Shown: in pieces, positions 3 to 54,600 of the stretch | Position numbering within the stretch: the first letter of the stretch is position 1 | How the letters are laid out: every line of letters begins with the position of its first letter | Assembly: GCA_043228905.1 (NCBI GenBank) | Contig: JBHGNT010000016.1 | Span: forward strand, 7,192,001 to 7,256,000 | Length of the DNA: 64,000 nucleotides | Direction of reading: 5' to 3' | From: Azolla caroliniana | Taxonomy: Eukaryota; Plantae; Polypodiophyta | The notes under the pieces: model-generated | Seen by the model: the letters and a program-made list of their open reading frames with translations, nothing else | What the model was told of the DNA's origin: nothing | Database searches by the model: none | Made by a program: the position numbers and the translations under genes

Positions 3-3000
3 AGAGCTTCGTTACCTCCATTAGAAGCAGACACAAGACTTATTGCAAAAGCAAAGAGAATATTTGAGAAGCATGTGCTATGCTTGCCAAACAGAAACAT
101 GATGATGCTTGAAGACCATCAGATCAACAGTGGATTTCCTGTGCAGATGGACCCTAGTAGAACAGAAATGCTTTTTAAGAGGAAGATCTTCATTGAAGAT
201 TTAAGCGTACTTCCTGAAGATGTACAAAAAGCAGTAGAAAACTTTGACTATGTACAGGTCAGTATTAAACATTTCCAACAGGATGGAAAATTTGAAGGCA
301 GCAATCCATTGTGTAATAATGTGTGCTTATCAAAATGCATAATACACAAGGAATGATGCTAAGATATTGTTGTAATTTCACCAGATGCATTTTCTTTTTA
401 ATTTCATTTCCATTGTTTATGGATACACCTCTGTTTGATATGTTTTCTCAATGTTAGTAGTGTGATTAGGTAGATGATCTCTTTGATTCAGTTAGAGATT
501 GAAATTGGGAAATATGCTCACAAAGCTATGTAGGAGAAGTTTGGCTAATTGAGCCATCCAGAGTATGAAGTAGGGGAGATACTATTGCATAGAGGAATAT
601 GAAGACCAATGATGCTTGCATGTTCTCATGGAAATCAAGATACATAGAAGTTGCTGAAAGGGAATATTGTGGTTACAAAAAGCACATCAACAAGGAACCC
701 TCACACACCTTTTTCAGTATCATAGTATCTGTATATCCTCAGCCAAATGTTTTTTGCTGGCTGTTTTTCACTTAGATCTTTGCCACAGTTCATTTTTAGT
801 GTTTAGATCTATACTAAAGGCAGGTTCTAAGGTTTCAGAACGTACTGTAAATTGTTTTGAGGGATTAGACCATAGTGTTATAATGTATTATGTGTGATCT
901 GTTATTCAGATCATTTTGCCATTGGCTGCCTCAAAATTACATACGGTTGTGAGTCCACTGGAACTTCAAAAAATGAATGCTGCCATCATTTATCTTGTCT
1001 TAATGAGGATTAGCTTCAAAATACCCAAATTATCTACTTCAATTTATCACTCTCAGAACTATACCGAAGTTCATATAGAATACAGTTTGAAATTAATAGT
1101 TGTCTGAATTACAATCTCTAGATTCATTCCTGCATAGTATATTATTGTCAATCAGGTAAGACCTTATGCTTTTAATCGGGAGTTTTGACAACAATTTTTT
1201 CTTTGCTTCAATACACACTGTGTCATACTCATAATATAGCTGTACTTGAATGACTTTAGCTTGCTTCAGACAGTTAGAGATGTTGTATATGGTGTATATC
1301 CTCTTGAAGAACACGATGCGGTGATGCTTGGTGCCTTACAACTTCGAGCTGATTCAGGATTCTTTAAAAATTTAGATGATGCACTCACGTAAGTGGATTA
1401 GGTCTCATTAACTAATAATGGTTGTAACTTAACAAAGTTTTTTTTGTGGTATAAAGTTGCAATGAATTTCTTAGTTACAGAACAAATAGGACAGAGAGAA
1501 GCCAGGGGAAGTCCTTTGATAGGGAGGCTCTTTGTAACTCATATTGAACTCTAGATAGAATTTTTTGGCGAATATATTATTATTATTATGAACCTCTTCC
1601 CATCAGTTAGAGATTAAGATAGGTGGATATACATCCACACCGCTAAACAAAAGGGTTTGTCAATTGTGTCATCGGGGAGTAGAATCTGAAAAACAAGCTT
1701 TTTTTATCGAAATAAGATGGAGATACTATTGCCTCTTTGGCCAAGGCTTTGGCCCACTATCCAAAGTAATGGAATATGAGGACCAATGGTGCTTGGGGCT
1801 TTTCTTGCTAGAACTCAATAGACATGAGGCAGAAGCTGGTGGACGACAATACAATCACACAAGCTCTTCAACAAAGAACAATCATAACTTTCTTGATCCT
1901 CGTCATTCCTACTCATGAGGGAGAAGTTGTTGGACAACAATACAATAACACAAGCTCATCAACAAAGAACAATCAAAACTTTCTTTATCCTCGTCATTCC
2001 TACTCATGCTACAAGTCAATCAAGGGCTACTCAAATGGTCTCTTGACCAAGACATTGCAAAGGGGTTACAATTGATTGGGCAATAACAATTTTCCGTGCA
2101 CATAGGCCTGACCTCATGAACCACGATCTCACCACCCTTGTCATTGACAGATAAAGGCCATTATCTCCTGCCATAGCAAGTGCTTCCCTCATTTTGGAGA
2201 CCTCTCCATTCTGGATTGACCTATGCTAGAGATTTTTCGAAAACAAAAATTTCAATATATGTGACTTGAGAATCTTACATGTACCAATTACAAGATTCTT
2301 TCTTTAGTCTTGTTTTATCTTATCTACTTTTTTTTTGTTACTTAGTAACATTTATTTTGATTTGTTGTTCTCAAAGACAAGATAGCACTTGGATGTAATA
2401 TCTTATTTGGTCTTATAGGTCATTTTGCCAATCCTCAAGAGTGGAGGCCCCATGATGCTGAGCAACTATAGGACAATCATGATTGGTCATTACTTGGCTG
2501 AACAATATGGCTATATCCTACAGTGAGGATTGAGTATATGGGCAGAGCGTAATGGCTGCCGTTCTGCTGGACAAACAGGTTTTCAGAAGGGGTTTCACAA
2601 CCCAAGCCGTTATCGAGGATAGAGACCATAATAAGAGGATTTATTGCTACTTTGTGGATTTCCGAAAAGCTTTTGACATTAGGTCGCGTGCCTGACTTAT
2701 GCAATGGCTAGAAGCCCGTGGTGTCCCTGTAGGTATGCAATGAGGAATCTATGCACTGTATGAATCAGTGTCAGGAAAATTGTGGTCTCCCAATGGTTTG
2801 TCAAAGGCTGTAGCAAACAGAATTGGAGTAAAATAATGATGCCCACTATCACCCTCTCTATTCAGTCTCTATATAGATGAGGTATGACATCAGATAGAGA
2901 GATTCAGAGGTTCGGTAGCATGCCTAGCTGTATAGCCATACAAATATTACTAAATGCTGATTTATGACTCTTGGGAGGGACTACAAAGATATGTAAACAC

Positions 3001-6000
3001 CTTAAAATTATTTTATATGAACGAAGTTTTGTTGATAAACATGGATAAAACTAAAGTGATGGTGTTGAACAACACTCAAGCGTGCGTAACAAGATCAGAA
3101 CTAGAATTATTCTTGGGAAATGAAGAGGTGAGACAATGTGCACATTTGCAGTTCCAAGAGCCACAAACTAAACAGTGGCTATCTGATACCCTTGTCACAC
3201 CAATTCATCTCTATGGAATAGAAATATGGGAACTTAACAAAGGCAAACAACTGGAAAGATTTAGAGAGACCTTTAGTCTCAGTGATTGCTAGCATGATAA
3301 AGAGCAAATCATCACTGCCCCATGATATATTCCAGGCAGAGATGGGTGAAGCCACTATAATCATCAAGGCATTATTTTGATAAGTGACATGTATTCAACA
3401 ACTTTGGGAGCTCCCTAAACAAAGGTACTCAAGGTTGGGACTTATGTCATTAAAACAACTTGTTGAACATGGAGATGCTCATTGTTGGTATGCTGAAATG
3501 TGACAATGGTTCAAGTCACATGGCATAAGCGTAAATGCACTCCTCTTGTTCCAATATAGCTTGGATTGTCCCCATCTAAACATGATCAAAGTGGAGAAGT
3601 ATAGAGTGATCTGAACTGATATTATTAACTTGGAAAATGCATGGATCATCCCCAAAATATCACTTGGTAGGAAGATGGTCCACTATAAGAAACTTTTACA
3701 CACATGGGAGGATGGATTCATCATCAGGCCATCTTATGTGAACACACATCTATCCTATGTGCTGCAGTGTGATAGGGCAGTAGCGAACTTCATCACACCA
3801 GTTAGAGATTGAGGTAGGTAGATATGCGCGAATACCTCTAGAAGAAAGAATTTGCCAATTGCGTCATCAAGGAGTGGAATTTGAAGAACACTATGTTTGT
3901 CACTGTAGTGTTTTTTATGAAATAAGAGGGAGATACCATTGCCTCTTTAAACAAGGCTTTGGCCTACTACCCAAGGTAATGGAATATGTGGACCAACAAT
4001 GCAACTTTATAGCCACACAAGCTCATCAACAAAGAACAATCACAACTTTATTTAGTCCCATCACTCTCACTCATGCTACAAGTCAATCTAGGGCTATAAA
4101 AGTGGGCTTCCAACCAAGACATAACAAAGGTGTTACAATAAACGGGTCAATAGAAATTTGTTGTGCACTTAGGTCCCAGCTCATGGACCACGATCTCACC
4201 ACCCTTGTCATTGGCAGACAAAGGTCATTGTCTCCCACCATTGAAAGTGCTTCCCTCGTTCGGAGACCTCTCCATTCTGGATCTCTCTATGCTAGAGATC
4301 TTTTGAAGACAAAAATTACAATATATCTGACAGATCCGATAACAAGATTCTTTAGTCTCTTTTCATGTAATTTACTGTTTTTACATAGTAGCATTTATTT
4401 ATTTTTGATTTGTTGTTCCCAAAGATGACACTTATCTTATTTACTGTTTTTATCTTAGTGACATTTACGATGTAAGCTGTTGTTTGGTCTTATAGGCCAT
4501 TTTGGCCTCTCTTAAAAGAGGTAGGCTTCCTCTTCCAAGGGTGTTGAGGTTGTAGTCAAAGGGGTAACAATAGATCAGGCAATAGTAAGTTGTTGTGCAT
4601 GTAGGCTTCAGCCCCGGCCCCATTGACTACAACCTCAACACCCTTGGAAGAGGAAGAGAAAAGAATACTTCAATATACTATTAGGAAAACAATACCATCT
4701 TCTTAAACTCTAAAATAATAACCCGAAATAACTAATTTAACCTCAATGACACTGGTTGAAAATAGTCTTTCCGTCTTCACGCTTTCTTCTACTAAGCTTC
4801 TTCTCACTTCTTCTAATCTTCTTATTCGTCCTTCCTCCCAATTGCAAAGAATACCATCCAATTTATAGGTTTTTAGTTGCGTTATTCTTTCATTTTTCTT
4901 TTCTTTTCTTTTTACATATCCTCGAGTTTATGTGAGGCGTTTTTTTATATCATTATTTCTGCTTTGTCATCCCAAATTTATCATACAAGAAAGCTCTCTT
5001 TGTCAGCTTTCTTACTAATCTTTTCTTTTGAAATTTGGATATGAGATGAAGAAGTTATGACCTTCAAGTTCCTTCCTCCATTAATACTTGATCATTTCAT
5101 ATTGTCCTTTGTTAGACCTCTTAGCATCCAACATGTTTGCAACAGTCTTTTCTTATGAACAAAGACTGAATTCACAGTATCCAATCACATCCCACTAGTC
5201 CAATGAGCCTTGGCTCTCAGAGAGCATTAACACTTTTTCGTACTCACTCACACAAGCTAGTTGTTGAGGTGGCAACATAGCATTATCACCCAAATATGAA
5301 GACGTGCAAGGAAGAAAACCTAGTGAGGATGAATATCACTTATCACATGCTCAGTGTATAAGGTAATTCGCGAGAAGGTATGATAATGTAAGTGTCATAC
5401 TCAAATGTCCACCAAGAAAGGTGAGCCTATGAGTGCTAGCATTATTTTCATATCGTGTTTTTACTAGAGTAGGAACCCTCGCAACAAGATGATATGTTGA
5501 TTTGGTTCCATAGGTCAGAGTGGCCTACTCATGGCAATAAAACATCTATTTGTTCTGCTCTATTGCTCTCTTGGTGAAAGTAAAGCTAAAATGGTGGTAT
5601 TATTGATTACTGCTCTTTTTATGCTCTACAATCTAGTTCAGGTTCTATCTTTTTATTAAGGGATTCATTGTATTTATTTTTGCATGAGTGTGTCAGCTGC
5701 TAATGATTTTACTTGGCTAGGGTCTCGACACAAGGGAAAAGGGTATGAGGAATCATGGCACTTATATGGAATGATATCTATAGCTCATATTGTTGTAAAC
5801 CAATTGTCTCATGGGCCAAATTTGGCCTTAGAAGACGTTAATATATCTTTCTTTCTTTTCTTTCTTTCTTTCATCACAACTTATGTTGGGAGGCAACTAA
5901 CTGAATGGACTTTTTTCATGAATGATGAATATATGTTTCAAATAGGGATGAGATTATTCGAAAATTTGGACCAAAAATCTATGTAGAAGGAAGTGAAAGA

Positions 6001-9000
6001 GAATGGAAAACTGCATTGGTAAGAACTGCTGCAGCGCTGCCTCCTGAAGCTGATATGTCTAACTGCATCAGTGACTACATAGATTTCTTACGAAGCCGCT
6101 GTAGCCTCTATGGATCAAGTTGGTATTATGTACAGGTATGTTGATTATCTATTTACTTATCCATTATGACTAAGGCTAGATGACAAATGTTAGGGATTTT
6201 GTGCAGCAAAAGGCTGATCCAAGGCTACCACATGAGATGTTTGTTTGCATCAACACTGCAGGTGTCTACTTTGTGAAAGTTAAGACAAAGGTTAGGCTTA
6301 TTTACCTTTTCGCAACTAAGAAAGAAAGATATAAGAGGCTATAAGACCAAACAAGAGATTACATCTTAAAATGTTGTCTCATCTTTGAGAACAGCAAACA
6401 TAACTCAGTAAAAAGAGTAGATTGAAATAGAATTAAGACGTGGCTAAGCAAAAAAGTAAATGGAAATAGAATTAAGACATGACTAAAGAATCTTGTCATC
6501 TATACATGTAAGATTCAGTATATTGTACTTTTTGGCCTTCAAAGGATCACTAACATAGGTCAATCCAGAATGGAGAGGTCTCTGAAGTGAGGAAAGCACC
6601 TAACAGAAAATATATGTTTGGGGTGATAGATTAAGTATCAGGATCTCAATGAATTATAGGCATAGCTATTCATACACATATGTGCTTGTTGCTTATTTTC
6701 ACGCTGCATAAGAATTGGGTAAAACCTATTCTTTGTTTAATCATTCATGTTCCAATTGTACCTTTTTTTGCTCTTTTTTTACCAATTTTCACACAGTTTG
6801 CTCTTTTTTTGTTGGAAACAAAGATTAATAGTTGGACAAATATTTACAATCATTTATAAACTACTTAGGCTCCTATTATGTGACGAATCCTGTGGTATGA
6901 ATTTCTGGTTGGGAAGAACCTCTAGCACAGAAATGTATATTTTGCTTCTAGAATTGTGCTACAGATGAAAATACTGAGCCGTGGTTTAAACGGCGATAAA
7001 GTGAAAATTGTTAAGCCAATAAAGGCTCAAACTGAACTAAACCAAACCCTTGAAATTCCAAGCCCAGGAAATCATTTACAAATTTCTAAAACTTACCAAA
7101 TCGAACCAAACCAGTTGAGCCATTAAGTCACGATTTCACGGTTCAGCTTTGCTAAAACTAAAAGTTGTTGATTCCCATGAACAAGACCCAATTAATGCAG
7201 CTGCCCTTGTTCATACTGCATTGTTAGTTAGCTCCGTCACTTTCTCATTTGCTCTATTTCTCAGAATGATTACTTCTACTGAAGCCTCAGAATCACTTTG
7301 CCAAGCTGCAAGGAATAGACTCCAGAAGGTTTTTAAAAAATGTTAGGGAACTGAGCTGTGAAAGGATGTTGAAGACCTCATTGCCAAATTCTTATTTTTC
7401 ACCTTCTTCGTTTAAAAAGAGATTGTATAAAGGTTATTTGTTTGATCTGCGCAATAAATTTTAGTTGTTTTATGTAGTGGTATAAATTGAGTCATAATTA
7501 TACATAACAATAAAGTTCTTGTTTTCTCTTACAGGAACAACTTCTGCATATGCAATTTACGGAGATTTGTAGCTGGGGTTATTCTGTATTTTCATTTTCA
7601 CTAGTAACTGGAAACATGTAAGGACAACAGAACGTGCTGATATTATAGTACATAAGGAAATATCCTCCAAAATCTCTGGTTGCATTCACATTGATGAGTG
7701 AATATAGCCATCTTTATATTACAACATTACTTAATGGGAACGTGGACAACCAATTCTATTAGTAAAAGACAACTTTCACTTCTAGGAAAGTTCATTGAAA
7801 CTCATCCATATTTTGAAAAGTCCAATCAATTTGAAAAGTAAATCTATATTTGAAGAAACTCAGCTCCTATTCATAACTTTCGCATATTCTCTTAGGATGA
7901 GTCAATATTGTCAATTCATGATGTGAGAAATAATGAATTAAAGCAAATTCTTAAAAGATTTATCCAAGCATCATGATTTCAAGATTTTTGAGGTTTTGTG
8001 TTGAATTGTGTGTGCACATCTATCAAAAAGTTTACTGATTTTGTCTTTGTATTCTCAGGACATATAGTCATGACCACCGATTGATAACAACACAGGTAGA
8101 TATTGTGTTTGCAAAAATACAAATCAAAAACATATTATTACTTCATATAAGTGAAATGGTTGATAGTTATTATAACAACATGAATCATCTGGAAAAACTA
8201 ACATCGAAAGAGAATAACCAAAAGAGAAAGAAAGAAGAAAGTTATATTAATGTCTTTTAAGAAGCCAAGCTACCTCCATGTTATTATGAAACAAGTTGTT
8301 TTAATGACATATATGCCAGTCTGAACTCCCAATTACATTGAATTATGTCATGGGAAATAAGGTTTCTCCACATCTTTCTAGCTATGTGCCTATTAAGGCT
8401 CTGTAGAGAAGAGTTGGTGCTACAATTGTATCAAACCACCACAATTTAGTTTGTGGTCTTGGAACTAGGTATGCGTACATTGTCTTTCAAGGCCCCAAGG
8501 GCTCCATATCCATGAGAAAGTTAAGACAGGCACCCTGCCATAGGAAGAACTCTGGCCCCTATGAATTTTACTTCTACATATTTGTAGGATCATGTGTAAG
8601 GCCACTTTTTCCTGTCCAAAGAAGAATCCCAGTTCTGATCTTGTTACTCATACTTGATTGATGTTAAACACAATCACTTTAGTTTTATTGAGATTGACTG
8701 TCAAATGTCTTTCGTGAGAAAATGTAACATCTATTGAAGAGAGGCCAAAATGGCCCATGAGAGAGATGCCCTTTGAACATTACTTGGGATTGGCATGTCC
8801 CACTACTTCCCATCCTTCTTTCTGGGGTTTTCCATGGTATTAGATGCTCCATTGTGGGATAGCAAAGCTTAACCTATGGATTATGCAGCCAGAACCTTCA
8901 TAGAACAAGCATCAGGGAAACAAAGATCAATGCACCAAAGGTAACTCAGCAAAGAGAAGGAATAATGTAATCAAAGAATCGCTTTCAGCAGAAATTAGGG

Positions 9001-9530
9001 ACATGGCATTACAGGAAATGACATTAACACAGAAATGGGAAAGTTGTATTTGTGTCTTCCTTCTTTTATTGGATTCCTTAATCAAGCATAGGTCTATGAG
9101 ATCTACAAAGATTACAACTGCTCACATTAATTGTCAGTGAGAGATGAAAATGTTATATGTTATAATATTAATCAAGCATTTAAACAAGGAAAGACTATGC
9201 CTAATTAAGTATCTAAGCCTACAGAATCGGATCAACCATGAATCCTCAACTCAGTAGCTCTCTCTGTAAGATTATCTTATGGAATGGAGCACTGCTTAGA
9301 TATTGACCCCTATGTAAGACTGGATCGCATATATTACATCCTACCAATAATCCATCTCATCTTTATATAATAGAATTATTGGTGCTTGAGAATGAATGCA
9401 TAAGCTTATTATCAATTTATCTATGTTAATATCAAGTCATGTTGAACTCAAATACGAAATGCCTTCCTTGTCTCAGGGTGCAGAAATAGGAGAAACATTG
9501 CAGATGTACATAAATAGGCTACAATTTTGA
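3..9530 (+). CDS. 3' part of a multi-exon gene encoding a C-terminal FERM domain (MyTH4-FERM myosin-tail/KCBP-like FERM); 5' end lies outside the window
   Basis: Phase-consistent GT-AG exons: <=5..257, 1270..1388, 5946..6135, 6207..6290, 7535..7617, 8059..8095, 9477..9530 (TGA). Joined protein: ...MLFKRKIFIEDLSVLPEDVQKAVENFDYVQ|TVRDVVYGVYPLEEHDAVMLGALQLRADSG...LT|DEIIRKFGPKIYVEGSEREWKTALVR...DYIDFLRSRCSLYGSSWYYVQ|QKADPRLPHEMFVCINTAGVYFVKVKTK|EQLLHMQFTEICSWGYSVFSFSLVTGNM|TYSHDHRLITTQ|GAEIGETLQMYINRLQF*. Matches FERM F2 (YVQxxxDxxxGxYP...A.LxALQ) and F3 (YG.xxF.V, lGIN..GV.F, I..WG, T.QG.EI...LQ.YI) motifs. Confidence 0.85.
485..720 (+). mobile_element. LINE 3'-end fragment in intron 1 of the FERM gene
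   Basis: Similar to 1600-1880 and 3795-4050 (cagttagagattga..., gggagatactattg, ggaatatg..gaccaatg, cacatcaacaaggaac). Confidence 0.6.
1598..2460 (+). mobile_element. 5'-truncated LINE copy (C-terminal zinc-finger region plus 3' tail) with an internal 91-bp tandem duplication
   Basis: Collinear with 3795-4500 (HQLEI.IG.Y...CQLCHRGVESE...EIRWRYYCLF.QGFG). The duplication unit starts at 1823 and 1914. Confidence 0.75.
2490..4510 (+). mobile_element. Degenerate non-LTR retrotransposon (LINE; RT plus CCHC-like C-terminus, RTE-X/CR1-like by motif style)
   Basis: Broken RT motifs CYFVDFRKAFD (~2645-2680) and GVK**CPLSPSLFSLYIDE (~2825-2882); C-terminal GRYARIPLEERICQLRHQGVEFEEHYVCHC (~3815-3905); multiple stops and frameshifts. 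Confidence 0.8.
4526..4656. repeat. Perfect 34-bp inverted repeat (hairpin)
   Basis: cttcctcttccaagggtgttgaggttgtagtcaa (4526-4559) is the exact reverse complement of 4623-4656. Confidence 0.95.
6335..6600 (-). mobile_element. Antisense copy of the LINE 3' tail in intron 4 of the FERM gene
   Basis: ggtcaatccagaatggagaggtctc is the reverse complement of gagacctctccattctggattgacc (~2197-2221); ctataagaccaaa vs tttggtcttatag (~2407). Confidence 0.75.
6978..7148. repeat. AACCG/CGGTT-rich MITE-like fragment
   Basis: Clustered aaccaaacc/cgaacc/cggttc motifs, like 13832-13948, 26710-27151 and 37427-37682. Confidence 0.45.
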
Positions 9531-11780
9531 TATGGCCTACAATATTAGCATAATCCTCTCCAATTTTGATAATGCAAGTTTGGTTTCAGGTTTGTTGTAA
9601 AACATGGCATCGATTGTGGTTCCACATATGTCCATGAAACAGGATTCTTTTGAATACTTGTTTACCTCGAAATGTAGCCTATTTTTATGTATTGAAGGTC
9701 TTTATTCTTGGTTATTTTTACATCAAAATATAAAAAGCTTTAACACCATTACTTGTTTTCTTTTACATGCGAACTAAATTCATTCAGTTTAAGCAAAGCA
9801 AGCTTTACTGATGTTTGAGAACACCGTTGCCTGTTCTTCCTGTAATACATGCGAGTCAGATTAATTTCAATCTAGCCAAAGTTTAAGAAATGAATATATG
9901 AATTGGTGATGCTTGATAACACCATTGCACATCATATTTGTTTAAGTGTATATGTTGGATTGGGTTTTCAATGTGCATTTTCTAAGGCGCTCCGGTAGTT
10001 AATTCATTATATTTTTATTTCTATTGGAAACCTCTGAATGTGAAGCGGAAATTACAATGGATGCAAGGTAGCAATGATATCCAAGATGGTGAAATTTAAT
10101 GCCTAGCACACTCACATTGTTGCTACTTATACAGATTGTTATGGAAAATTAGAGATTCGATCTTATTTTTTAATCTGATTCGAAGATGATCCACAAAATG
10201 TAAGGAATTAAGTGGAGCTCTCTTATTTTTGGATGAAGACATTGAATACCATGGAATCATACAGAAGTATTTGCTCTTTCTCAATCATCACATCTTGATC
10301 ATGAATAAGTTCTAATTACAAGGAAATTTGGTCATCAGCAAATTGTAGGTCTCTTATGAACATGTGCTCTGGATTGTGGAGCTTGAAAATCCAAGGTTAC
10401 CCACTGCACAAATGAGATGAGTATAACAAGTGCTATGGTGTCAAAGCATTGTCGTTGCACATCACTCAGGAAATTCAAATATAGAGTGTTTGCATTTCCC
10501 TGTTGTGGATCATTGACTAGTGCATAAAATTGTTATTGGCAGGAAAACTAGGGTATCTGGCTTTTGTTCGATGAAAATGAAAAACTGATCCATTATGGAT
10601 TCATGACTTGAGATTATTAAATCTAATGTTTTATGTACAAAACCTTAATGTTTTTAGTTGGATATCACACATTAAATTAAGGGTTTAAAACAATACAATT
10701 GCCTTTTTAAAGTAGTGTAAGGTATGTGATGTAAGCATTGAGGTAGGTGGGCTATAACACTGTAGCACGCATCATAGTTTCTTCACCTTTTAAATGTTTT
10801 GAGACTGTTGCTTCCAGAACCGTAAGTCTTCACAAACACCAAAGAAAGTACTCTTAAAATAGATACAATGGGTACCAACAGTACTCATACTTATGAGATG
10901 AGCCTTATTGTTGATTGAACTGTGGCAACTTTATGAGAATGAATATATATTCCAATGTCATTTCACTGTGGATAAACTCAATTGGGCAGTGTGGGAAGAA
11001 TGTGTAAGGAAACTTTACTGCATATAGATGAAGCACAATTGAGAAGAGAATTGCAAAATACTCATTTATAATGAATGTAACATGTTAGTATCTGCTGGAA
11101 CAAGCGAGACCTCATATTTGCAGTAATCGTGCTGTGTTGCTAGCGAGTAGCATCACCCATGTTTTTATTCTTGATGCTCCTAGCATACTTGTTAATCACA
11201 TAATATGTGGAATTGATAAATATAAAATGACCATTTTTTCTGAAATTTTTTAATGGAATCTTATAGCACAAATGTTCGTCCATTCCTTCAATGGATAATA
11301 TTTAACCCATCTCTCTGGCTGTACGCTTAGTGGTTTACACTGCAGCATCAAAGTCATAATTTTGAGAGACCCCAATGTTTGATCCTCGCCACCATGGGCT
11401 AGGACCCCATCCCATAGATTATAATTGGTCTCCTATGAACATTATAAAGATATCTATCTATCTATGAACCCATTGTGCCATAAAGCAACAGCAGTGTTTC
11501 TACATGTGTATGATTTTTGTTTCACTCCAAACAAATGCTTGAGAATTCTATACATTGTTAGTACCCAATTTCTCCATTTGGTAGCATATAATATATATAT
11601 ATATATATATGCATAAACACAATTCGTTGCCAATATTCCAATCTTCACCATGTTAAGAGGCAATTTTCTTGCCTTTATGCTTGGTTTCTTCTATCCAATA
11701 CATCACTTCACTGGCAGTTCTCTCACCATACTTGTATGTGGACTTGATATATAACTTTCTGCCCTTTTATACTTGTTCCC

Positions 11781-12131
11781 ACCTTAGCATTCCATTTCCA
11801 ATTTTCTGGCTTTCGATGCTTCATTCCTCACTCTCATTGCCTTGATCTTCATAGCAACCTTCAGCATATTAGCATCCACATACATATTTGCCATACTTGT
11901 TTCCACCTTAGCACTCCATTTCCAATTTTCTGGCTTTCCATGCTTCATTCCTCATTCGCATTGCCTTGATCTTCATAGCATCCTTCCGCATATTAGCATC
12001 CACGTACATATTTCCCAACCTTAGCACTCCATTTCCAATTTTCTGGCTTTCCATGCTTCATTCCTCACTCTCATTGCCTCAATCTTCATCGCATCCTTCT
12101 GCATATTAGCATCCACATACATATTTGCCAT
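11781..12131 (-). repeat. Three tandem copies of the PPR gene 3' end, including the stop codon
   Basis: Units begin accttagca(c/t)tccatttccaattttctggcttt at 11781, 11905 and 12018 (periods 124 and 113 bp). Confidence 0.9.
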
Positions 12132-13790
12132 GCACACATAAGCCCCAGCTTCTTTATCATCTAGCTTTATCACTTCCTCGAATGCATGCCTTCCTAGCTC
12201 CAAATTCCGCCATTTGCGGCATGATCCTAGGACAGTAAGCCATAACACAACATTTGGATGAAAGGTTGTCTTCTTCATTGTAGCAATAGCCCTCTCTATT
12301 TGGCCAGCACGGCCAAGGAGGTCGACCATGCAAGTATGGTGTTCAATTGTGGGTGTGATGCCAGAGTCTTTTGTCATGAACTCAAAATATGTATGACCCC
12401 TCTCGATCAACCCAGCATGGCTACATGCATTCAATACACTTACAAAAGTGATCGAATTCGGTTTCCCACCTTCTCTTCTCATTCGTTCAAAAAGGCACAG
12501 CACATCCTCAATCTCTCCAAGCCTGGCATGCCCCGTGATTAGAGAGTTCCACAAGACTACATCTCGAACTGGAAGAGTATCGAAGATCCCATGTGCTTTA
12601 GCTAACAATCCACATTTGGCATACATGTCAACTAAAGCAGTGCCGAGAACCACATCCTTTTCAAGAAGATCCTTTCGGGTGATGTAGTTATGGATCTCTA
12701 TGCCTTTATCTTTAGCTCCAATTAGGCCACATGCTTTCAAACTGGAGGAGAGAGTGATAGAATTGGGAGAGATACGATCACGTCTCATTTGTTCTAGACA
12801 TTTTAGAGCTTCCTCACCATATCCATGTTGGACATACCCTGCAATTAATGCAGTCCAAGTAACCACATCTCGAACTAATAACTCATCAAACACATCCTTA
12901 GCTCTTCTAAGCAAACCACACTTAGCATACATATCAATGAGAGCATTGCCGAGCACAAGGTCTCCTTTCAATAACAATCCTTGTTTAGATATTTCGGCAT
13001 GTATTTCCTTACCCACATATATAGCCCCAATGCTTGCACACGCTTTGAGGCTACATGTGAAAGTATAAGAATTGGGAGAGACTCCTTCAAGTCTCATCTT
13101 TTCAAAGCAAAGGAGAGCTTCTTCACATCTTTGATGTTGGACGTATCCTCCTATCAAGGCAGTCCATATGACTACATCCCTTACAGGAAGAGAAATCAAT
13201 ACATGATGAGCTTTCTCAATCAATCCGCACTTAGCATACATATCTACTAATGCACTGCCCAAAAAGCAGTTTTTTGACAGAAACCCTAATTTAGCCATAT
13301 GGGCATGCAGCTTAGATCCTGTTTCTATGTCTTTTAGCTTGGCACAGACCTTGAGTAAAGATACAAAATTATACTCATCTGGGTGTATAGGGACATTCGC
13401 ATCTTTTCCATTTCTTTTCATTTCCGCATTTGCTTTCTCTTTTTCATTCGATTCTTCATCGTCTTGCATTTTCTTATACAACATCAGGGCATACGCGGGC
13501 TGACCACATCTGATATATCCATGGATGAGAGAATTCCAAGAAGACGCGCTCTTGAAAAGCATGTGATCGAAGGTTTTCTGAGCATTGGACAAGAAATCGG
13601 GGTCTGCAAGCAGAGAGACGAGGCGATTCCCAAATGCTCGATGAGATGTTGGGAACCCTGTTTTCTCAAGGATTGAAAGGAAGCAGAGGGCATGGATCGT
13701 CGGCTGTGTTGAGTCTGAGGTATAATGGAAGGTAATTTTAGCTGCAGTTTGAACCAAAAACACACCAAAAAAAAAACTAAAACCCTTCAT
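12021..13790 (-). CDS. PLS-class pentatricopeptide repeat protein, E subtype (no DYW domain); probable organellar RNA-editing specificity factor
   Basis: 589-aa ORF with P-L-S triplets (ALVDMYAKCG..A..VFD.L.VRDVVxWTALI.GY.QHG, TFxxxLKACxxIGA), followed by S2/E1/E2-like HHTCMVDLLGRAG...WLTVLGSCRKW...AYVCMANMY. No PG box or HxE/CxxC. The exact start is uncertain because an acceptor-like ttcaaactgcag lies near 13743. Confidence 0.92.
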   Translation of the reverse strand: MKGFSFFFGVFLVQTAAKITFHYTSDSTQPTIHALCFLSILEKTGFPTSHRAFGNRLVSLLADPDFLSNAQKTFDHMLFKSASSWNSLIHGYIRCGQPAYALMLYKKMQDDEESNEKEKANAEMKRNGKDANVPIHPDEYNFVSLLKVCAKLKDIETGSKLHAHMAKLGFLSKNCFLGSALVDMYAKCGLIEKAHHVLISLPVRDVVIWTALIGGYVQHQRCEEALLCFEKMRLEGVSPNSYTFTCSLKACASIGAIYVGKEIHAEISKQGLLLKGDLVLGNALIDMYAKCGLLRRAKDVFDELLVRDVVTWTALIAGYVQHGYGEEALKCLEQMRRDRISPNSITLSSSLKACGLIGAKDKGIEIHNYITRKDLLEKDVVLGTALVDMYAKCGLLAKAHGIFDTLPVRDVVLWNSLITGHARLGEIEDVLCLFERMRREGGKPNSITFVSVLNACSHAGLIERGHTYFEFMTKDSGITPTIEHHTCMVDLLGRAGQIERAIATMKKTTFHPNVVLWLTVLGSCRKWRNLELGRHAFEEVIKLDDKEAGAYVCMANMYVDANMQKDAMKIEAMRVRNEAWKARKLEMEC

Positions 13791-15840: not shown

Positions 15841-15951
15841 GCGCGGTTTGCGGAATCCACGCGTTATTGCGTAATGTGCGCGGTTTGCGGAATCCACGCG
15901 TTATTGCGTAATGTGCGCGGTTTGAGGAATCCACGCGTTATTGCGTAATGT
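15841..15951. repeat. 37-bp tandem repeat x3 (plus a partial copy) in the copia A 3' region
   Basis: gcgcggtttgcggaatccacgcgttattgcgtaatgt at 15841, 15878 and 15915. Confidence 0.95.
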
Positions 15952-18900
15952 CTTCAGTACTCCCCCTCAAGCTTGGCAGGTCAAGGATCGTCAATCCGAG
16001 ATCGGTCATGAATTGCCATAGCTTGTCAGCTCCTAAGGCTTTAGTGAAGATGTCGGTTGTTTGAAGATTGGTGCTAATGTGTTGTAGGTCAACATCGCCA
16101 TCTAGAACACGCTCTCGGATGAAGTGATAGTGCACTTCGATGTGCTTTGTCCGCGCGTGGAACACCGGGTTCCGAGCCAGATAGATACTACTCATGTTGT
16201 CGTAGTAAAGGGAAGTCGGATCCTTGATGGGTACACCCAGATCCTTGAGTATCCTTTTGAGCCATACGGCTTCACATGCGGCCACTACCGCGCCCCTGTA
16301 TTCCGCCTCTGTGCTCGGAAGAGCGACGGTTGGTTGCTTTTTGCTACTCCAGGATATTGCTCCGTTGCCGAGGGAGAAAACAAATCCGCAGGTTGATCTT
16401 CTATTGGCTTTGTAGTCGGCCCAATCGGCGTCTATGTACCCCTCGAGTTGTATTGGCATCACAAACTTGTAGAGGATGGCGCAATCCATTGTGCCGCTCA
16501 CGTATCGTAGAACTCGTTTAGCGCATTCCAAGTGAGTATCACGCGGTGTTTGCATGAATTGGCTAAGGAGACCGACCGGATAACTGAGATCGGGACGAGT
16601 GATCGTGAGGTAGATGAGACTCCCAATGAGTTGCCGATACTGAGTCGGCTCACACGCTTTGGTGCCGGAGTTCGCATCTAGTTTGAGATTGCGATCGAGC
16701 GGGGTTGCCGCGGATTTGCACTCAGCCATCCCGAACTTGTATAACAAGTTGAGGATGTAGTGCCCTTGAGAGATCATGATTCCGTTTGGAGTCCGAATTA
16801 CCTCTATGCCGAGGAAGTCGTGGAGCTCCTTCATGTCCGTCATATCGAACTTGTCGGAAAGGAGGGATTTGACCTTATTGATTTCGACGAGATGCTCACC
16901 TCCAATGACTAGGTCATCCACATATAAGATGATGAAGATCGGACTTGCGGAATCGCTTCATATGTAGAGGGAGTTGTCCGATTTTGACATACGGAAGCCG
17001 ATTTGATGAAGATATTGCGTTATCTTCGAATGCCAAGCACGCAGTGCTTGCTTGAGGCCATAGAGTGGCTTCTTGAGTCGGCATACAGCTTTCGGATGGG
17101 TGCTCGAGTTGAAGCCGGGTGGTTGTATCATCTACACCTCCTCTTCTAATTCGTCTTGTAGAGGGAGTTGTCCGATTTTGACATACGGAAGCCGATTTGA
17201 TGAAGATATTGCGTTATCTTCGAATGCCAAGCACGCGGTGCTTGCTTGAGGCCGTAGAGTGGCTTCTTGAGTCGGCATACAGCTTTCGGATGGGTGCTCG
17301 AGTTGAAGCCGGATGGTTGTATCATGTACACCTCCTCGTCTAATTCGTCTTGTAGAAAGGCGTTCTTGACATCCATTTGATGGAGGTGCCACCCTTTCAT
17401 CGTGGCAAGCGCAATTACGGTCCGTACCGTCGTCATCTTTGCCATCGGGGCAAAGGTCTCTTCGTAGTAAACTCCGTGCGTTTGTGCGTAGCCTTTCACT
17501 ATGAGTTGCACTTTGTAGCGGTTGACAGAACCATCAGCGTTGTACTTCACTTTGTAAATCCATCTGCATCCGATCGCCTTTTTATGTGGTGAGGTGGGAA
17601 CGAGATCCCACATCTCGTTCTTGCGTAGTGCCTGCATCTCCTCGTTCATGGCTTCGATCCATCGTGGATCCTTGGCTGCTTCGGAAAATGTTTTCGGCTC
17701 GCGTACTGTCGCCACCTTCATCATAAAGGCATAATGATATGCCATGTAGTCGTTGTAGCCGAATCGGTTGACCGGATTCTTTTCACGGGTGGAGCGACAG
17801 AGCTTTTCATTTGCAGAGATGAGGGCTTTCTTAGCTCCGATTGGTACATCGAAGCCGCCAAACTCACTGTCGAGTGAGTGAGTCAACTCATCGTCGTCGA
17901 AGCGATCGTCTTCGTATTCCGCCATTTTCGCCTTGCCTTTGTCCATCTTCGGCCTAGGCTGTGATGTGCTTTGATCGCTCAAAGGCTCTTGTGGTCCCCT
18001 TAGTCGGGTCGTGATCGGACTTTCTTCAAACATGCGCGTAAGGCTATCTTCATCCTCTATCTCTTGTTCCGCGGATTCCGGGTCGAGCGGAGTCGGAGTC
18101 GAAGTTGTCTCTGGTGCGTACCAGGATGCGGACTCGTCAAACACGACGTCTCGACTTACTCGAGATTTTCGAGTTGAGGGGTTGTAGCACTTGTACCCCT
18201 TTTGCTCCAGTGAGTATCCTACAATGATACATTTCTCCGACTTCGGGTCAAGCTTTTGACACTTCTCGTCGGGGATGTGCACGTACGCTATCGCGCCGAA
18301 TATTTGGATGTGCGATAGGTTCAGCCTCTTTCCGAAGTATTTTTCGTGCGGAGTGACCTCGTGCACCGGTTCATTAGGTAGACAGTCGTATTTGCAGCTT
18401 CGGCCCAATAAGACTTGGGCATATGCTTCTCGTTCATCATGGCCCGCACTACTTCGAGGATGTGCCGATTTTTGCACTCGGCTACTTCGTTTTGTTGCGG
18501 AGTGTGTCGGCAAGTGAATTCTCGCTGAATTCCTTCCTTTCAGAGATACCCCGTGAAATCGTCCAAGAAGTACTCCTTGCCGCCATCCGATTGAAGGCAT
18601 CGTACATGTCGGCCCGTGGCTTTCTCGACTTCATTCTTGAATTTTTGGAAGTGTTCGAACACTTCGCTCTTTTGCCGCATCAGGTAGATCCAAGTGTGCC
18701 TGGAGAAGTCATCGATGAAGAGCACGTAATATCGGCATCCACCGAATATAGCCATCTGCGCCGGTTCCCATACGTCGGAATGGATTACGTCGAGTAGACC
18801 TTTGCTCACGTTCCGCTCTTTCGGAAATGGGTGTCAGTGTTGCTTGCCAAATTGGCACGCTTCGCATACACCTTCAATCTCCTTCTCTTTGAATGTCAGG

Positions 18901-20453
18901 AGTCCGACGACGACTCCTTTCGATTTCATTGCTTTGAGTTTGTTGAGATTGATGTGGCCGATTCGCTTGTGCCATAGCTCTATGTCAAAGTCGACTTTCG
19001 TGCTTTTTGCGAACATGGCGGATTTTATCTTGTGTGAATCGAGAATGAACATTCGGCCCTCTCTTCTTCCGCGCGCGATGATTCGGCCCTCTTTTTCGAT
19101 GAAGCACCCTTCTTGGTTGAATCGTACTTGCATCCCTTGCTCAACCATCTGGCCAACCGAGACCAAATTCTTCATGATGGTGGGAACATGCAAGACATTT
19201 TTAATGCATGTTTGCTTGCCTCTTTCGTCGAACGGAACATTGCCGATGTGCCGAATCGGGTGCGTAGTGTCATCACCAGTTTCGACATAACCGGGTCGCT
19301 CCGGCTCTCGAAGTTCGAGAAACCATTCTTTATGAGATGTCATATGGTTTGAGGCTCCAGAGTCAACAAACCATACGTCTTCTGGATTGAGGGCACTAGG
19401 TGAGGTAGAGGCCGACATAGAGTTTGCTCTATGTTTCATCATGAACATTCCGCCACGGTCGGAGTTGTGTGCGTACATTCTACCACGATTTTCGTAGTCA
19501 GAGTTGTGCCCGTACATTCCGCTATACTCTTCGTAGTTAGAATTGTGCGCGTAATTCGTGAGTTGTCGGCTTGTCGGCTTGTGGAAGCCGATTCGTGTAT
19601 CTTCTTTCAGCACTCTTCTTCGTGGTGGCTGAACTTTCCACAATATCCACATTCGGTTGCGTTTTGACGGCTCGGGCCGAAGTGGAAGCTCCCCCTTCTT
19701 GCGAAGGTTCCTCGTTAGCTTCCGTTTTGCGGCCGAAATTGGGAGTTGTTGTCGTAGGTCAGACCTCGTCCGCCTTGTCCTTGGTTGAATCGGCCTCTCG
19801 CTCGTCCGTGTCCTCTTCCGCCGTTCAAGTGCATGTAGAGCATGTGGTCTTCCGACTCATTGCTCCTTGTACGCACGTGGTTTTCTTCAACCAATAGCAT
19901 TGATTGGAGCTCGAAGAAGGAGGGAGATTTCTCTCGTGCTAGAACGGCGGTTCGCATCGCGCCGAACCATGGTGCGAGGCCGCCGAGGCATATTTGCACC
20001 ATCTCATCATCATCGATACTTACGCTTATCGAGCCGAGCGAGTCGCAAAGCTCCTTGATCTTCAAGGTGTATGTCGTGATGGACATGTCCCTTTGTTGAA
20101 TGTTGTTCAACTCTTGGCGGAGTTGAAGCCTTCTTGCGGTTGTGTTCGCCGCGAAAATCTTTCGTAGATTTTCCCATGCTTCCTTCGGCGCCTTGGCTTT
20201 GCGAATGTAGCCAAGCATGTGATCGTGAACACATGTCGCCAAGCAATACATCACGCGGCTTGCGGCTTGCTCCCATGTCGCGTATCCGTGCTCGGCGGGT
20301 CGGTCTTCGTGCGGGTCGGTCTTCGTGCTCTCCTTTGATGTAGCTCTAATAGCCTTGTCCGACAAGGTATTGGTGCATCTTGTACTCCCAAGATACAAAG
20401 TTGTTTCGATCCAACTTCTCGGTAGGGAGAGCGCTCCCCATTTGAGTATTCAT
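15938..20453 (-). pseudogene. Copia A gag-pol (gag, PR, INT, RT, RNase H), frameshifted
   Basis: Fragments: gag 19715-20398; PR WFVDSGASNHMT and GAG-pre-integrase LWHKRIGH...CEAC in 18834-19652; INT HSDVW...FIDDFSR 18540-18809; RT 17146-~17700; YVDD..RNase H 15938-16921. Confidence 0.92.
16963..17356. repeat. 194-bp tandem duplication inside the copia A RT
   Basis: Bounded by tgtaga at 16963, 17157 and 17351; the two copies are nearly identical. Confidence 0.93.
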
Positions 20454-44487: not shown

Positions 44488-47400
44488 TCACCCAAAATTG
44501 TCGTCACGATCACCCACCAATAGACCCACATCCTCAGACACTTGTTTATAGTGCCATTTGGCGAAGGCCAAGAACAACATAAATGTGAATAATAGCATCA
44601 CATCAAGAAGCAAATAGAAGTAGTCCAGGTGACCTTGATTGAGGTCACTTGGTATCCAAGATGTATAAGAGACAATACCTTGTACAATGAACGAGCTTAA
44701 GTAGTTACCTATTGCAAAGCCAGACAAAGATATGGCTGTGGCCAAGCTCCTCATGCTTTGTGGAGAGAAAGAGTAGTTGAAATCTAAATGCCCACATCCA
44801 AACAACACAGTCGTGCACCCTTCGAGGACATATTGCGGGATAAGCCAAAATATACTCAGCGGTACTTGATTATCATCATCATCTTCTGCTGTTGCTTTCC
44901 CCATTGAAAACCACGATTGCTCATGAGCAATCCTCAGCCTTTGTGTTTCAACCAATGCCGCAATAAAAAGCACGGACATAGCAGTCAAGAGACCTGCACC
45001 CATTCGCTCAACAGACGAAACTTCTTCATTAGGTTTGTTGCGTAAGCTCCTTTGGATCCATGGAACAATCACCCATGAATAGAGAGGAGCCCCCACCACT
45101 ACAGTTAGCAAGCTAAATAGACCCATTGAAGAAGGTGGAATCCTAAGGTGGTTTCTGAAAACTTGATTGTCCATAGTGGCTCCTTGTAGTACAAACAAGG
45201 TTCCTTTTTGTGCTAGTGCTGCTGACACCAATACTCCACACACCCAGAAGGGCATTAGCCTACATATACTCTTCACCTCCTCCACTTCCTCCATTGTGCA
45301 CAATCTCTTCATCCATCCTCGACTCCCTTTGGCTGCCTTATCCAACCATCTGTCAAAAGAAGGTTAGCCAAGAAAACCAAACGAATAGTCACACATATCA
45401 ATCCAGTGATCAATCTGCCACACATTATCAACATGGATCAAACATAACAATACATATCAATTGAATGAGAAATCTCCTATGCTATTATTCTCCATGGCCT
45501 AGAGTAGCATCCAAACCCATTGGCAAATGATATATAACCACCCAATTCTTCATTAGGATATCATGGTAACAATTGCCATTATTTGTAAACGTAAGCAACA
45601 AAAGCAAAAAGAACAATCATGTATGTCAGTTCCCATTCTATTACACTCCCAACGTGTTCGCATTCCCACCCCATTTGGACTAAGTGTATAAGCACAATGA
45701 TAAATCTAATTTTCTTTAAAACAAGGCACACAATCAATGCTACTGTTTCTTATTCTTCATACATAGTAAACAAACTGTTATGATGCACAACAGTTCATCA
45801 ACATTTATGCATTTTTGTCATTCCAAGGACAGAAAATACTTACCACTATTTGCTTGCTAAAACAAATCTCTGAGGTTTACTAACCTGAAGCTATTTGTTC
45901 GCTTCATGCAAAGATGCCCTAATGCCACGGATGTCTCGATTTCTACAAGACCCTCACTACTGAAGGGCTCTGTCACTTTCCAGTTCTGTGCAGCCGCAAA
46001 AATGACATTGCCAATAGTAAAAAGGGGGTTCTTCCCTGGAATAAACTGTCGGGTTCTCGGAATAGCTGCCAAAAACAGGAGAAGGCCAAGAATACCCGCA
46101 ATTGCTGAGATCCAGAAACCCATCTCCCATTGCCCTTCATTTTGCACATATGAGATTAAACTTATTGCAATTAACATGCCAACATTTGTTGATGCCATAT
46201 AGAGAGTGATAAAGCTGGACTTTTGTGATGGGGCCTTAAATTGATCTGCCCCCAGAGACAACATGTTGGGTGTCGTAGATGCAAACCCTAAACCCATCAA
46301 ATATAGGGATATGTAGAAGAGACTGATTTGATTAGGGGTAGCTTCTCCTGTAGCTTGTTCACAATTATGCATATCCCCACAAGATGTTTCTAACCTCTGT
46401 TGTGTGATGAGATTGGAGCTAGATACGGCAAAAAGTATTAATCCCTGCAGTATTTGTGTACAGCAAGCCTTTAGTTCCGACTTATAGCTTGATGAGCGCA
46501 GAATTAACAGGATGGTACATGTTAGAGCGTACCATGAAAGCATTACTTGTACGATGTATATATATTCCATGAATATCTACACACATGTACATGGATATCT
46601 AAATCATGTGTATGTGTATGTTTATATATTGTAGTATATACAATGTTAAATAATAGCAGATAACACTTTATGCATTGCTAACAAATGGAGAGTAACCACT
46701 TTTTCCTGAAAATGGAATCCCGTGGGTAGGCAACATTTTGAACTTTTTAAGTTATGTATGTAACAAATTTCAGTGATTCTAATTTTTGTGCTTTAAATGC
46801 ACGGGGTATCTTAACTAGGAACAGATCACGTTTTTTTATTTACTGTAGAATCTGTAGAATCTGGGATTTCTCACACATTACAGTGTCCACAATCTGGGGC
46901 CACCATTGTTTGATGTAAAAATCAAAAGCTGTATTCCTTATATTGCATACTGTTCAGCATTTCATGCCTGCAGCAAACACATGGAAATCCAATCTGTTCT
47001 TTCTTATCAACCATCTGCAGATGAGAGCTCTCTCCTGTTGTATCAGTCTTGCAACTCTTCTACTAAATTAATCCACTGCACGGAGCTTCTGGTATTTTGA
47101 TATCTTATCTTTTGTATTCATTCTTGTTTTGTGTGTCACCAATGTGTTCATTCAATCCAACCCCGAGAAATGATTAGATTCACTACATTGTTGTAGGAGT
47201 AGGATTGAGAAACATAATCTCCCCTGTTGTAGTAGTAGGACAGCTGAGTTGGATGTAAAACTAAAATCTCCGTAATTATGTGCAGAATAACATCAAGGAG
47301 TAAACATCCCGCTTCACTTTGCTTGTACAATGATCAGCATGATGTGTTAAAAAATTCAAGATTCATCGAATACATTTGCATCAAAACAATCAACCATACA

Positions 47401-51695: not shown

Positions 51696-54600
51696 TGTCG
51701 AATACATGTGTATAATGGACGTATTCACATTATCCCGTTTTGGCCATTTATGTAATTAGCATAAAGGGTAGTTGCCCTAAGTCGGTCACTATATATAGTG
51801 ACCTTGTAACCTTTTTGTAAGGTTGGATGTTGTATTATTGTTCTATTGAATAGAAAGTCTTTTGTGTCTCTCTCTCTCTCTCTCTCTGTGCAACGACCTA
51901 GTAACAGCCATACGCAGGTACAGAGAAGGAACGAATGCTTCTTGATCTTCCGCACTGACGGCCCCTTGTCTCCCAACATCTGGTATCAGAGCAGAGGTTC
52001 GGCCGTCATCACCGCCTGCACAACATTCGGTTCTTCACTTCATCACGGCCTGCACAGTATTCGCGTCATTCGAAGAAAGAGAGAAGAAGAACAAAAACGA
52101 GGTTTGCACCTCATCGCGTTAGATCCCCTTGCCTGGAGTAAGCCAGCAGGTAGCACTCCGTTCCTTGTGATCGTAACCGCTCGAGGTGAAATCCCCTTGT
52201 GCAACTTTGACAACAACCCAAATTCGTGCTTCATCTGGCTGATCGACATTCGGGAGGATCAGTCGGATCCGTCTCTCTCGTCGCTGCAGTCACCCGAAGC
52301 CGAATCGGTCCAGATAATCGGTTTCAATAATCGGTATTCGGCATATATATCCGAAGCGAACCGGGCTCACTCCGACTCGGCGACATTCGGGAAGACCAGT
52401 TGGTTCTGTCCCTCAAGTTACCGGAGTCAATTCGAGCAAGTTCCGAAGCCGAACCGACTCGGGTTCAAATCCGACTAGAACAATATCGGGTGAGCCAACC
52501 GGCTACACTCCAACGAGGTTCGTAGTCAACTCCGAACCGAGCTTCGTCAACCGAAAACCGAATTTGATGGCATCAACATCCGGCTCGTCAGAAATGAGTC
52601 TACGAAAGTTCGATGGATCGAACTTCAACTTCTGGAAGGAGCAAATGCAAGACTATCTCATAGTCAAGGGGCAAATCGATCCCATCGAAAATGAAGAACC
52701 TCCAGAAGGATACAAACCAATTGAGTGGCAGAAGCTGGACAGAATCGTCCGCGCCACGATTCGGATGCACCTATCGGAATCGGTATACTTTACGGTGCAA
52801 TCGTGTACGACAGCATTCGAACTGTGGAAAACACTGTCGGACACTTACGAAAAGAAGGTCGCCGCAACGAAGATGTTTCTGATCCGGCGCCTCTACAACT
52901 TGCGGATGAAAGAATCCGATTCGGTTCAAGCACACCTCAACGAGTACGAAAGCATAAGCTCCCAAATCTCGTCACAGGGGATGGCAATCGAGGATGAACT
53001 CAGAGCAATGATACTCATGAGTAGCCTTCCCTCTTCATGGGAAACTTTCGTCACAACCGTGTGCAACGCGTCAACCACGGCTGTTAAATACTCCGAAGTC
53101 ACGAGCGCAATCCTGACCGAAGCAGCTCGGAGAAAGTCTTTCGCCAAAGACTCAACAGACGACGCTTACGTAGTACAAGGTTCGACAGACCGATCGAACA
53201 CACGAGGAAGAGATTCCTCACGGCCGCCGAACAATCAGCGAAGACGGAGTCAGTCACGGGATAACCGAACCTGCAACTATTGCAAGAAACCCGGACACAT
53301 CAAAGCCGACTGCCGCGCACTCAAGAACAAGAACAACAAGAAGAGTGGCCGGCATGAGGAGATCAATTACGTCAGCTCCTCAGCTGATGTGCTACCAGAC
53401 GACCTGAATATACTATCAATCGAAAATCCAGTCGGATCAGAAGTTCTGCTCACGACTGAAGAATCGAGCACATGGCTCTTAGATTCGGGTGCGTCATTTC
53501 ACGTGACTCCTCATCGATCCCAATTTCGGCAATATGCGATCCGTCACTCCGACTCAGTTCGGGTCGGCAACTCACAACACTGTGACATCATCGGAATCGG
53601 CACAGTAGAGCTCAACCTTGCAGGTGGCTCTACACTTGTACTCCACAATGTCCGACATGTACCCGAGCTCTCAAGGCCATTGATCTCAGTCGGACAACTA
53701 GATGAAGACGGCATTCGTGCCGGTTTTTCTTCGGGAGGGTGGACACTCCACAGGGGGAACCTCCTGCTTGCTAGAGGACCCAAGATACACTCACTGTATC
53801 CGTTACATGTTACGCTCAGAGAGGGTAACCTGTTTTTGGTGGACATTCCTGTGTCATCACTATGGCACCGAAGATTAGGACACCTCAGCAAGGCCGGCAT
53901 CACGCACCTATCTAGAGCCGGATACATCCCCAAACTCTCCTTCTCGGACCATCAATTCTGCGAGCATTGCCAGTATGGCAAACAAGCAGCCGCATCACAC
54001 CCGACATCAGCACCAAGAGAAACGAGACCTCTCGATTTAGTCCATTCGGACGTCTGTGGCCCAATGCCGCATCAGTCTCTAGGCGGTGCCTCTTACTTCG
54101 TCACTTTTATTGACGATTCGACTCGAAAGGTGTGGGCTTATCCGATTCGCACCAAAGATCGGGTCTTCTCGATCTTCTCCGATTGGCTCGCTATGGTAGA
54201 AAATCAAACCGACCGAAAACTGAAATGCTTTCGGACCGACAATGGGGGAGAGTTCAAATCCGAAGAATTCGTCAAATTCTGCCGACAACGCGGCATCCGA
54301 CGTGAATTTACGGCACCACACAGTCCGGAGCAAAACGGGATTGCAGAACGAATGAATCGGACAATCCAAGAACGGATAGTTTCCATGCTCCAACACTCTG
54401 GACTGTCGGATGGCTTCTGGGCAGAGGCTCTACTCACGGCAGTACACATAATCAATATGTCACCAAGTAGACCTCTAGGACTTCAAATTCCTCAGGAACT
54501 TTGGATCGGCAGTAAGCCGAATTACGACAAGCTGAGGATCTTCGGATGCGAGGCGTACGCCCTTATTCCGAAAGATGATCGCCGAAAACTTGCACCTCGG

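Follow-up and report, generated by a model that had tools for sequence, protein, structure and literature searches.

What kind of protein does a land-plant gene encode if it stops right after a FERM domain? The question is posed by a stretch of 64,000 nucleotides from the fern Azolla caroliniana, here called the window, which opens with the 3' end only of a spliced gene whose upstream exons lie outside it. In plants KCBP is treated as the carrier of the MyTH4-FERM tandem (PMC1434745, for Arabidopsis; PMC4574192); four KCBPs are listed for moss (PMC3472504). We find that the Azolla gene likely belongs to a second plant MyTH4-FERM family beside KCBP, one that is motorless, resembles the tail of myosin VII, occurs in seed-free plants and is apparently undescribed.

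A spliced gene that ends in a FERM domain

Boundary tests on the window sequence join seven exons into a chain of 273 open codons with a single stop, the TGA at 9528-9530 (Table 1). All six introns have GT..AG borders, and the phases are compatible across the chain. Each of three one-base shifts that were tried gave 11-16 stops, against one in the chosen chain, while random AG..GT-bounded segments with the same five internal lengths, drawn from the rest of the window, stayed open in 31 of 100,000 draws. Taken singly, exons 2 and 5 give weak Pfam matches. A strand at residues 420-425 of the modelled moss orthologue assigns exon 1 to the end of FERM lobe F1; this exon matches the short Ceratopteris isoform P0001 at 56% and P0002, whose frame runs on upstream, at 94%.

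The preliminary description had placed these exons among introns filled with long interspersed nuclear elements (LINEs). This holds for intron 2, where a reverse transcriptase remnant is recognisable (RVT_1, E 6.8e-6 at 2522-3004, in one of seven frames tried); other introns carry high-copy repeats, identified by repeat depth. Related genomic fragments keep the splice sites of exon 5 without exon gaps (L031-L033), and one of them (L032) also those of exon 6.

Orthologues in ferns and a moss

What lies upstream can be read in other seed-free plants. A search with exon 1 confirmed one of 197 candidates, Ceratopteris KP509_04G017100 (KAH7438491.1), whose longer isoform, P0006, has 1,251 residues. 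The whole Azolla chain aligns to its residues 972-1249 with 195 identities in 278 positions (70%, E 2e-141). With the F2-F3 region of P0006 as query, 6 of 473 candidates were confirmed: Adiantum GOP47_0000415, Ceratodon M758_6G204800 and four fragments. The Ceratodon protein (P0009) has 639 residues and a counterpart, KC19_6G214100, in a second assembly; fern and moss share 45% identity over F2-F3. The orthologues end within two residues of the window's stop position. The preliminary description had read the locus as a seven-exon FERM F2-F3 region ending at this TGA: the GT-AG chain and the identity to Ceratopteris bear out the exons and the stop, and the extent needs refining, as exon 1 encodes the end of F1 and the linker.

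Intron-retaining Ceratodon isoforms diverge after residues 582, 610 and 622/623, which correspond in the alignment to introns 4, 5 and 6 of the window; for the other three introns there is no moss isoform break to compare. Given the orthologues, three intron positions common to fern and moss, and the grouping of the plant sequences in a tree with support 100/99, the gene is, on these sequence comparisons, at least as old as the split between mosses and ferns. The suspected presence in seed-free plants is thereby supported for ferns and a moss.

The gene models differ in places. Ceratopteris has six extra residues at the boundary of exons 1 and 2, which are missing from the moss protein and the Azolla gene. 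An 18-nucleotide in-frame micro-exon at 1138-1155, preceded by AG and followed by GTAAG, was considered as their Azolla source and rejected, the moss protein having no insert; the contigs of three sequencing runs (X2, X3 and X4, see below) give zero cover at 1084-1254. The Adiantum model (P0008) joins the region before MyTH4 straight to late F2, without MyTH4, F1 or the last exon, and departs from the family alignment at the end of exon 6; it is probably a mis-annotation. Two further matches, P0003 and P0004, are repeat proteins and were dropped as chance hits.

A MyTH4-FERM cassette without a motor

Pfam finds MyTH4 (E 3.5e-27 in Ceratopteris P0006, 3.8e-31 in Ceratodon P0009), RA_2 (F1), FERM_M and IRS/PTB (F3), the last reaching to the final residues. 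No other Pfam domain was found in these two proteins, including kinesin, myosin head and PH, and a motif scan of five orthologue models was negative for P-loop, IQ and kinesin motifs in every one. The stretch before MyTH4 has about 690 residues in Ceratopteris, acidic and of low complexity, and 110 in Ceratodon, rich in glutamine; S, P, Q, E and D make up 44-55% of the N-termini of the orthologue models, and the acidic stretch is common to Adiantum and Ceratopteris (35%). We thus hold with high confidence that the orthologues in ferns and moss are motorless and built of three parts: an N-terminus of low complexity, MyTH4 and a C-terminal three-lobed FERM. By the same comparison we infer that the upstream exons of the Azolla gene itself would carry MyTH4 and no motor.

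These data support part of what had been anticipated for the locus. FERM does sit at the extreme C-terminus, the stop following F3 in window and orthologues alike, and the MyTH4 sought upstream is found in P0006 and P0009. No kinesin motor follows: besides the stop, a contig in run X4 with unplaced letters before the last acceptor runs 89 nucleotides past it, and a convergent PPR gene begins about 2.5 kb downstream. A motif scan downstream of the gene gave four isolated short matches. The idea of an unconventional motor is not supported, as the full-length models of Ceratopteris and both Ceratodon assemblies have neither motor domain nor IQ. With a stop that terminates the FERM domain and no kinesin, myosin-head or IQ signature in the orthologues, the product is likely neither a full KCBP nor a myosin, and rather a motorless adaptor.

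Likeness to the tails of myosin VII

Which known cassette does the plant protein resemble most? An AlphaFold model of P0009, built on an alignment of 25 rows, has a mean predicted local distance difference test score (pLDDT) of 73; residues 1-112 fall below 50, and the remainder forms MyTH4 and three FERM lobes. In Foldseek all matches listed above rank 16 are myosin MyTH4-FERM cassettes, ahead of talin, KRIT1 and ERM proteins, with the C-terminal cassette of Myo7b at the top (5xbf, E 1.5e-24); VIA-align places Dictyostelium Myo7 MF2 first (5ejs, Z 25.7, root-mean-square deviation 5.4, 441 aligned residues). Sequence tells the same: among solved structures, Myo7b and Myo7a match best, each with its C-terminal cassette (5mv7, E 1e-33 for P0006), a myosin-VII C-terminal cassette still leads when F2-F3 is used alone (E 1.5e-9), and F3 aligns to that of Myo7b nearly without gaps. 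The earlier impression that F3 is myosin-VII-like therefore stands among solved structures, a comparison that listed no KCBP tail and so does not rank myosin VII against KCBP.

The likeness to myosin VIIa, VIIb and Dictyostelium Myo7 MF2 thus covers sequence, fold and the C-terminal position of FERM. At about 24% identity, however, the plant family lacks the head, IQ motifs, SH3 and second cassette of myosin VII, and has a long F1 insert and a long low-complexity N-terminus of its own. More generally, the head and IQ motifs of MyTH4-FERM myosins (VII, X, XV, XXII, XXV) are missing from all five orthologue models, while the moss model is predicted to fold into their C-terminal MyTH4-FERM supramodule.

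Motorless cassettes are also found outside plants. PLEKHH1-3/MAX-1 of animals have one or more PH domains before MyTH4-FERM. They share with the plant family a C-terminal MyTH4-FERM, the lack of a motor and, as predicted for the plant proteins, a scaffold role, and differ in their PH domains, for which neither P0006 nor P0009 has a match; a cluster of PKHH3 fragments ranked third in one comparison, a lead only. Oomycetes perhaps have motorless MyTH4-FERM proteins too. The architecture is therefore not new to eukaryotes.

For plants, a literature search that left most subscription papers outside found no description of this motorless family. The gene had been called possibly undescribed in the preliminary description; no published account came to light, but the gene is already predicted publicly, its orthologues bearing no more than the labels 'hypothetical' or 'FERM domain-containing'. 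With a second family, motorless and shared by mosses and ferns, plants would gain a candidate linker of microtubules, actin and membranes. Both Ceratopteris and mosses are amenable to gene editing.

Transcripts of the Azolla gene

Four sequencing runs were available as contigs (X1-X4). They are presumed to be RNA, although X1 behaves as DNA; contigs drop rarer splice forms, and their depth cannot rank expression. Spliced transcript is present in three of the four, from three studies. Record 13 of X2, which begins at 5946, measures 448 nucleotides, exactly the combined length of exons 3-7, and the following record begins 30 nucleotides before 9530; the splicing of exons 3-7 in this run rests on such length arithmetic, repeats having crowded the table of joints. 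Record 30 of X4 covers 9474-9619, with 76 unplaced letters before the last acceptor, and by reaching 9619 documents a molecule that continues beyond the stop with no further splice to a motor. Exon 1 has contig cover in X2 and X3. Around exon 2 the picture is less simple: the first letter of X4 record 29 lies two positions ahead of exon 3, as expected from a skip of exon 2, while in X2 exon 2 joins exon 3 by overlap and is preceded by 29 unidentified letters. The proposed junctions are thus backed for exons 3-7, which fit spliced contigs, and not for the first one.

A static adaptor?

What would a motorless cassette do? KCBP MyTH4 binds microtubules and KCBP FERM binds F-actin in vitro (PMC4574192), moss KCBP needs the C-terminal part of FERM (FERM-C) for cargo transport, and the cassettes of myosins VII and X bind cargo peptides through their FERM lobes (10.1101/629733). 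By analogy with these tails, F3 may bind cargo peptides or lipids, possibly F-actin, and MyTH4 may contact microtubules, a prediction that is weaker for ferns. The disordered N-terminus could serve as a spacer or localisation arm. As a cassette on a disordered arm without a motor suggests tethering and not transport, the protein would act as a static adaptor, tying cytoskeletal filaments to the tails of membrane proteins, either in the cell cortex or on the surface of an organelle; the new family is, in short, predicted to work like the tails of KCBP and the MyTH4-FERM myosins. We put the probability that this is a fern gene of a motorless MyTH4-FERM family, working as a static cytoskeleton-membrane adaptor, at roughly 0.6.

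Several observations weigh against this reading. The Azolla 5' exons lie outside the window, so that the N-terminal part is read in the orthologues only. The MyTH4 region has a net charge of -6 in Ceratopteris and +7 in moss, which weakens the case for conserved microtubule binding and makes the FERM-cargo side the safer prediction. The only exon-1 junction seen is a skip to exon 3 (X3 record 16), a frameshift with a stop at codon 87; in X2 exon 2 is placed from 1259, which fits an out-of-frame acceptor at 1260 with a stop at codon 91; and the in-frame junction 257/1270 appears in none of the four runs. Divergence does not differ significantly between exon and intron in three related fragments (p 0.44, 0.23, 0.12). 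Finally, the family tree, which took in 8 of 30 metagenome FERM proteins and one insect myosin VII as two cassettes, contains no KCBP.

The in-frame junction of exons 1 and 2 is nonetheless supported by homology: the moss protein keeps the same register without a gap, and the Ceratopteris protein conserves exon 2. The short Ceratopteris isoform, P0001, has its end at this boundary too. Exon-2 skipping and the 1260 acceptor are possibly regulated unproductive splicing, and the frameshifting skip may set the amount of full-length protein.

Sperm, relic or general linker

It is possible, if doubtful, that the protein serves sperm only, as an anchor by which the microtubule spline or the basal bodies of spermatids attach to membrane or actin, and that it was lost together with motile sperm. 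All named plant matches are indeed ferns or a moss, Arabidopsis has MyTH4 and FERM in KCBP only (PMC1434745), and the out-of-frame splice forms would be in keeping with a gene silenced in all but a narrow cell type. On the other hand, spliced transcript in three of four runs does not suggest a rare cell type, within the limits of contig depth. Matches in liverworts, lycophytes, cycads, Ginkgo and algae are missing as well, in searches of low sensitivity: one with the MyTH4-F1 region missed the moss orthologue despite its in-range length, so absence from other lineages does not follow. In published resources, Ceric.04G017100 occurs in the available supplements of PMC13434465 in a Gene Ontology table only, the supplements of PMC9477723 contain no match for the gene, and a term look-up in PMC3663805 and 10.1101/2024.08.27.609851 returned nothing relevant.

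A bolder proposal, which we regard as unlikely, would make the family a motorless relic of a green-lineage myosin-VII-type tail and the sister or donor of KCBP's MyTH4-FERM, confined to plants with swimming sperm; there, exon 2 would be included in particular cells only and so turn on a linker that joins the spermatid microtubule spline to the membrane or the actin cortex. With the new family at hand, a tree can test where the myosin-like tail of KCBP came from.

A truncated KCBP or a foreign gene

Could the family instead go back to a paralogue of KCBP, with loss of the coiled coil and kinesin motor followed by fast divergence? Duplication and truncation are a simple route. KCBP/ZWICHEL (kinesin-14 class VI) is the described plant protein with a MyTH4-FERM tandem after a short N-terminal segment (PMC4574192), the order seen in P0006 and P0009, of which the window holds the FERM part; moreover, the comparison with PDB entries could not gauge closeness to myosin VII against KCBP. 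KCBP, however, continues to a coiled coil, a kinesin motor and a calmodulin-binding domain, where the new family stops after F3, and it is far better conserved, its FERM-C being 93% identical between Arabidopsis and moss (10.1101/629733) against the 45% found here between fern and moss. KCBP is also absent from the search results: with exon 1 as query, an exhaustive HMMER search found four matches in 1.84 billion proteins, none of them KCBP, and among 1,817 candidates of the insensitive MyTH4-F1 search there was no KCBP at E<=1e-10, the best non-plant match being insect myosin VIIa. Together with the nearly gap-free F3 alignment to Myo7b, the gap in conservation and the lack of KCBP matches disfavour a truncated KCBP, which we consider decidedly unlikely.

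Acquisition by an early land plant from a non-plant eukaryote, with an amoebozoan, oomycete or animal myosin tail as source, appears improbable. MyTH4-FERM myosins are described as amorphean, with ciliate myosin XIV named the sole bikont case in a survey including five plants and four chlorophytes (PMC3942036), and in the nearest Atlas cluster without myosin-head, IQ or PH members, those whose origin is known (12 of 116) come mainly from oomycetes, a lead only. Yet identity with non-plant relatives does not exceed about 21-30%, the tree gives the plant sequences no supported sister group (63/35, long branches), and KCBP already brings the module to green algae (PMC1434745), so that vertical descent with loss suffices. 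Pattern searches confirmed none of 73 and none of 52 matches in viral contigs and none of 69 in prokaryote genomes. A metagenome scan confirmed 34 of 130, of which 30 are stand-alone talin-head-like FERM proteins or pieces and three are genomic pieces of close relatives; these FERM proteins were selected by a shared F3 pattern and are hence biased. One match (L034) looks like chance.

As an observation of its own, the 30 metagenome proteins (L001-L030) form a conserved family of stand-alone talin-head-like FERM proteins of about 320 residues, with acidic tails and an F3 motif in common with the plant protein.

That the window holds the tail of an unrecognised plant myosin, its head further upstream and split off in gene models, is very improbable: the gene does have the layout and sequence of a C-terminal cassette from myosin VII, and its 5' end is missing here, but the Ceratopteris and both Ceratodon models begin with motor-free low complexity and no IQ motif, the acidic stretch before MyTH4 is shared by two ferns, and a bikont MyTH4-FERM myosin is named for ciliates only (PMC3942036). 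Equally hard to credit is a gene decaying in Azolla's fern lineage with mostly unproductive transcripts, as the two premature stops and the unseen in-frame junction might suggest, since all exons are free of stops and frameshifts, exon 2 is highly similar to Ceratopteris, contigs lose rarer forms, and the runs show at least 17 exonic differences, of which 12 affect third codon positions, 9 leave the amino acid unchanged and none of those listed creates a stop.

Features of the window

Table 1. Parts of the FERM gene and its neighbours, in window coordinates
Feature	Position	Strand	Remarks
Coding exon 1	3..257	+	5' part upstream of window; end of FERM lobe F1 with long insert, and F1-F2 linker
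Coding exon 2	1270..1388	+	First helices of FERM F2; FERM_M E 0.012; skipped in run X3
Intron 2 (4.6 kb)	1389..5945	+	Decayed non-LTR (long terminal repeat) retroelement, high-copy and internal repeats
Coding exon 3	5946..6135	+	Remaining F2 and start of F3; 84% to Ceratopteris P0006; contigs in X2, X3, X4
Coding exon 4	6207..6290	+	F3 (PTB-like) strands; 3' intron position equals moss break after residue 582
Coding exon 5	7535..7617	+	F3 core, FTEICSW motif; IRS/PTB E 0.043; moss break after residue 610
Coding exon 6 (37 nucleotides)	8059..8095	+	Last F3 strand; moss breaks after 622/623
Coding exon 7 (last)	9477..9530	+	F3 C-terminal helix and TGA
Probable 3' untranslated region (end not mapped)	9531..9822	+	X4 record 30 at 9474-9619; X2 records 14 and 15 over 9501-9822
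PPR gene	12021..13790	-	Intronless, PLS/E-class
Near-tandem copies of PPR gene	~11760..12140		Follow its 3' end
Copia element, broken	15938..20449	-	Third of its kind
NPF/POT (PTR2) transporter open reading frame	44488..45363	-	E 1.3e-36
Second open reading frame	45857..46576		Within 44488-46576, with the preceding
Copia-type LTR retrotransposon	52318..56565	+	Open gag-pol frame of 1,415 codons
Copia-type LTR retrotransposon	57455..61849	-	

Beyond the FERM gene and the PPR gene convergent with it, the window holds a transporter locus and three copia elements, of which the two near its 3' end face each other.

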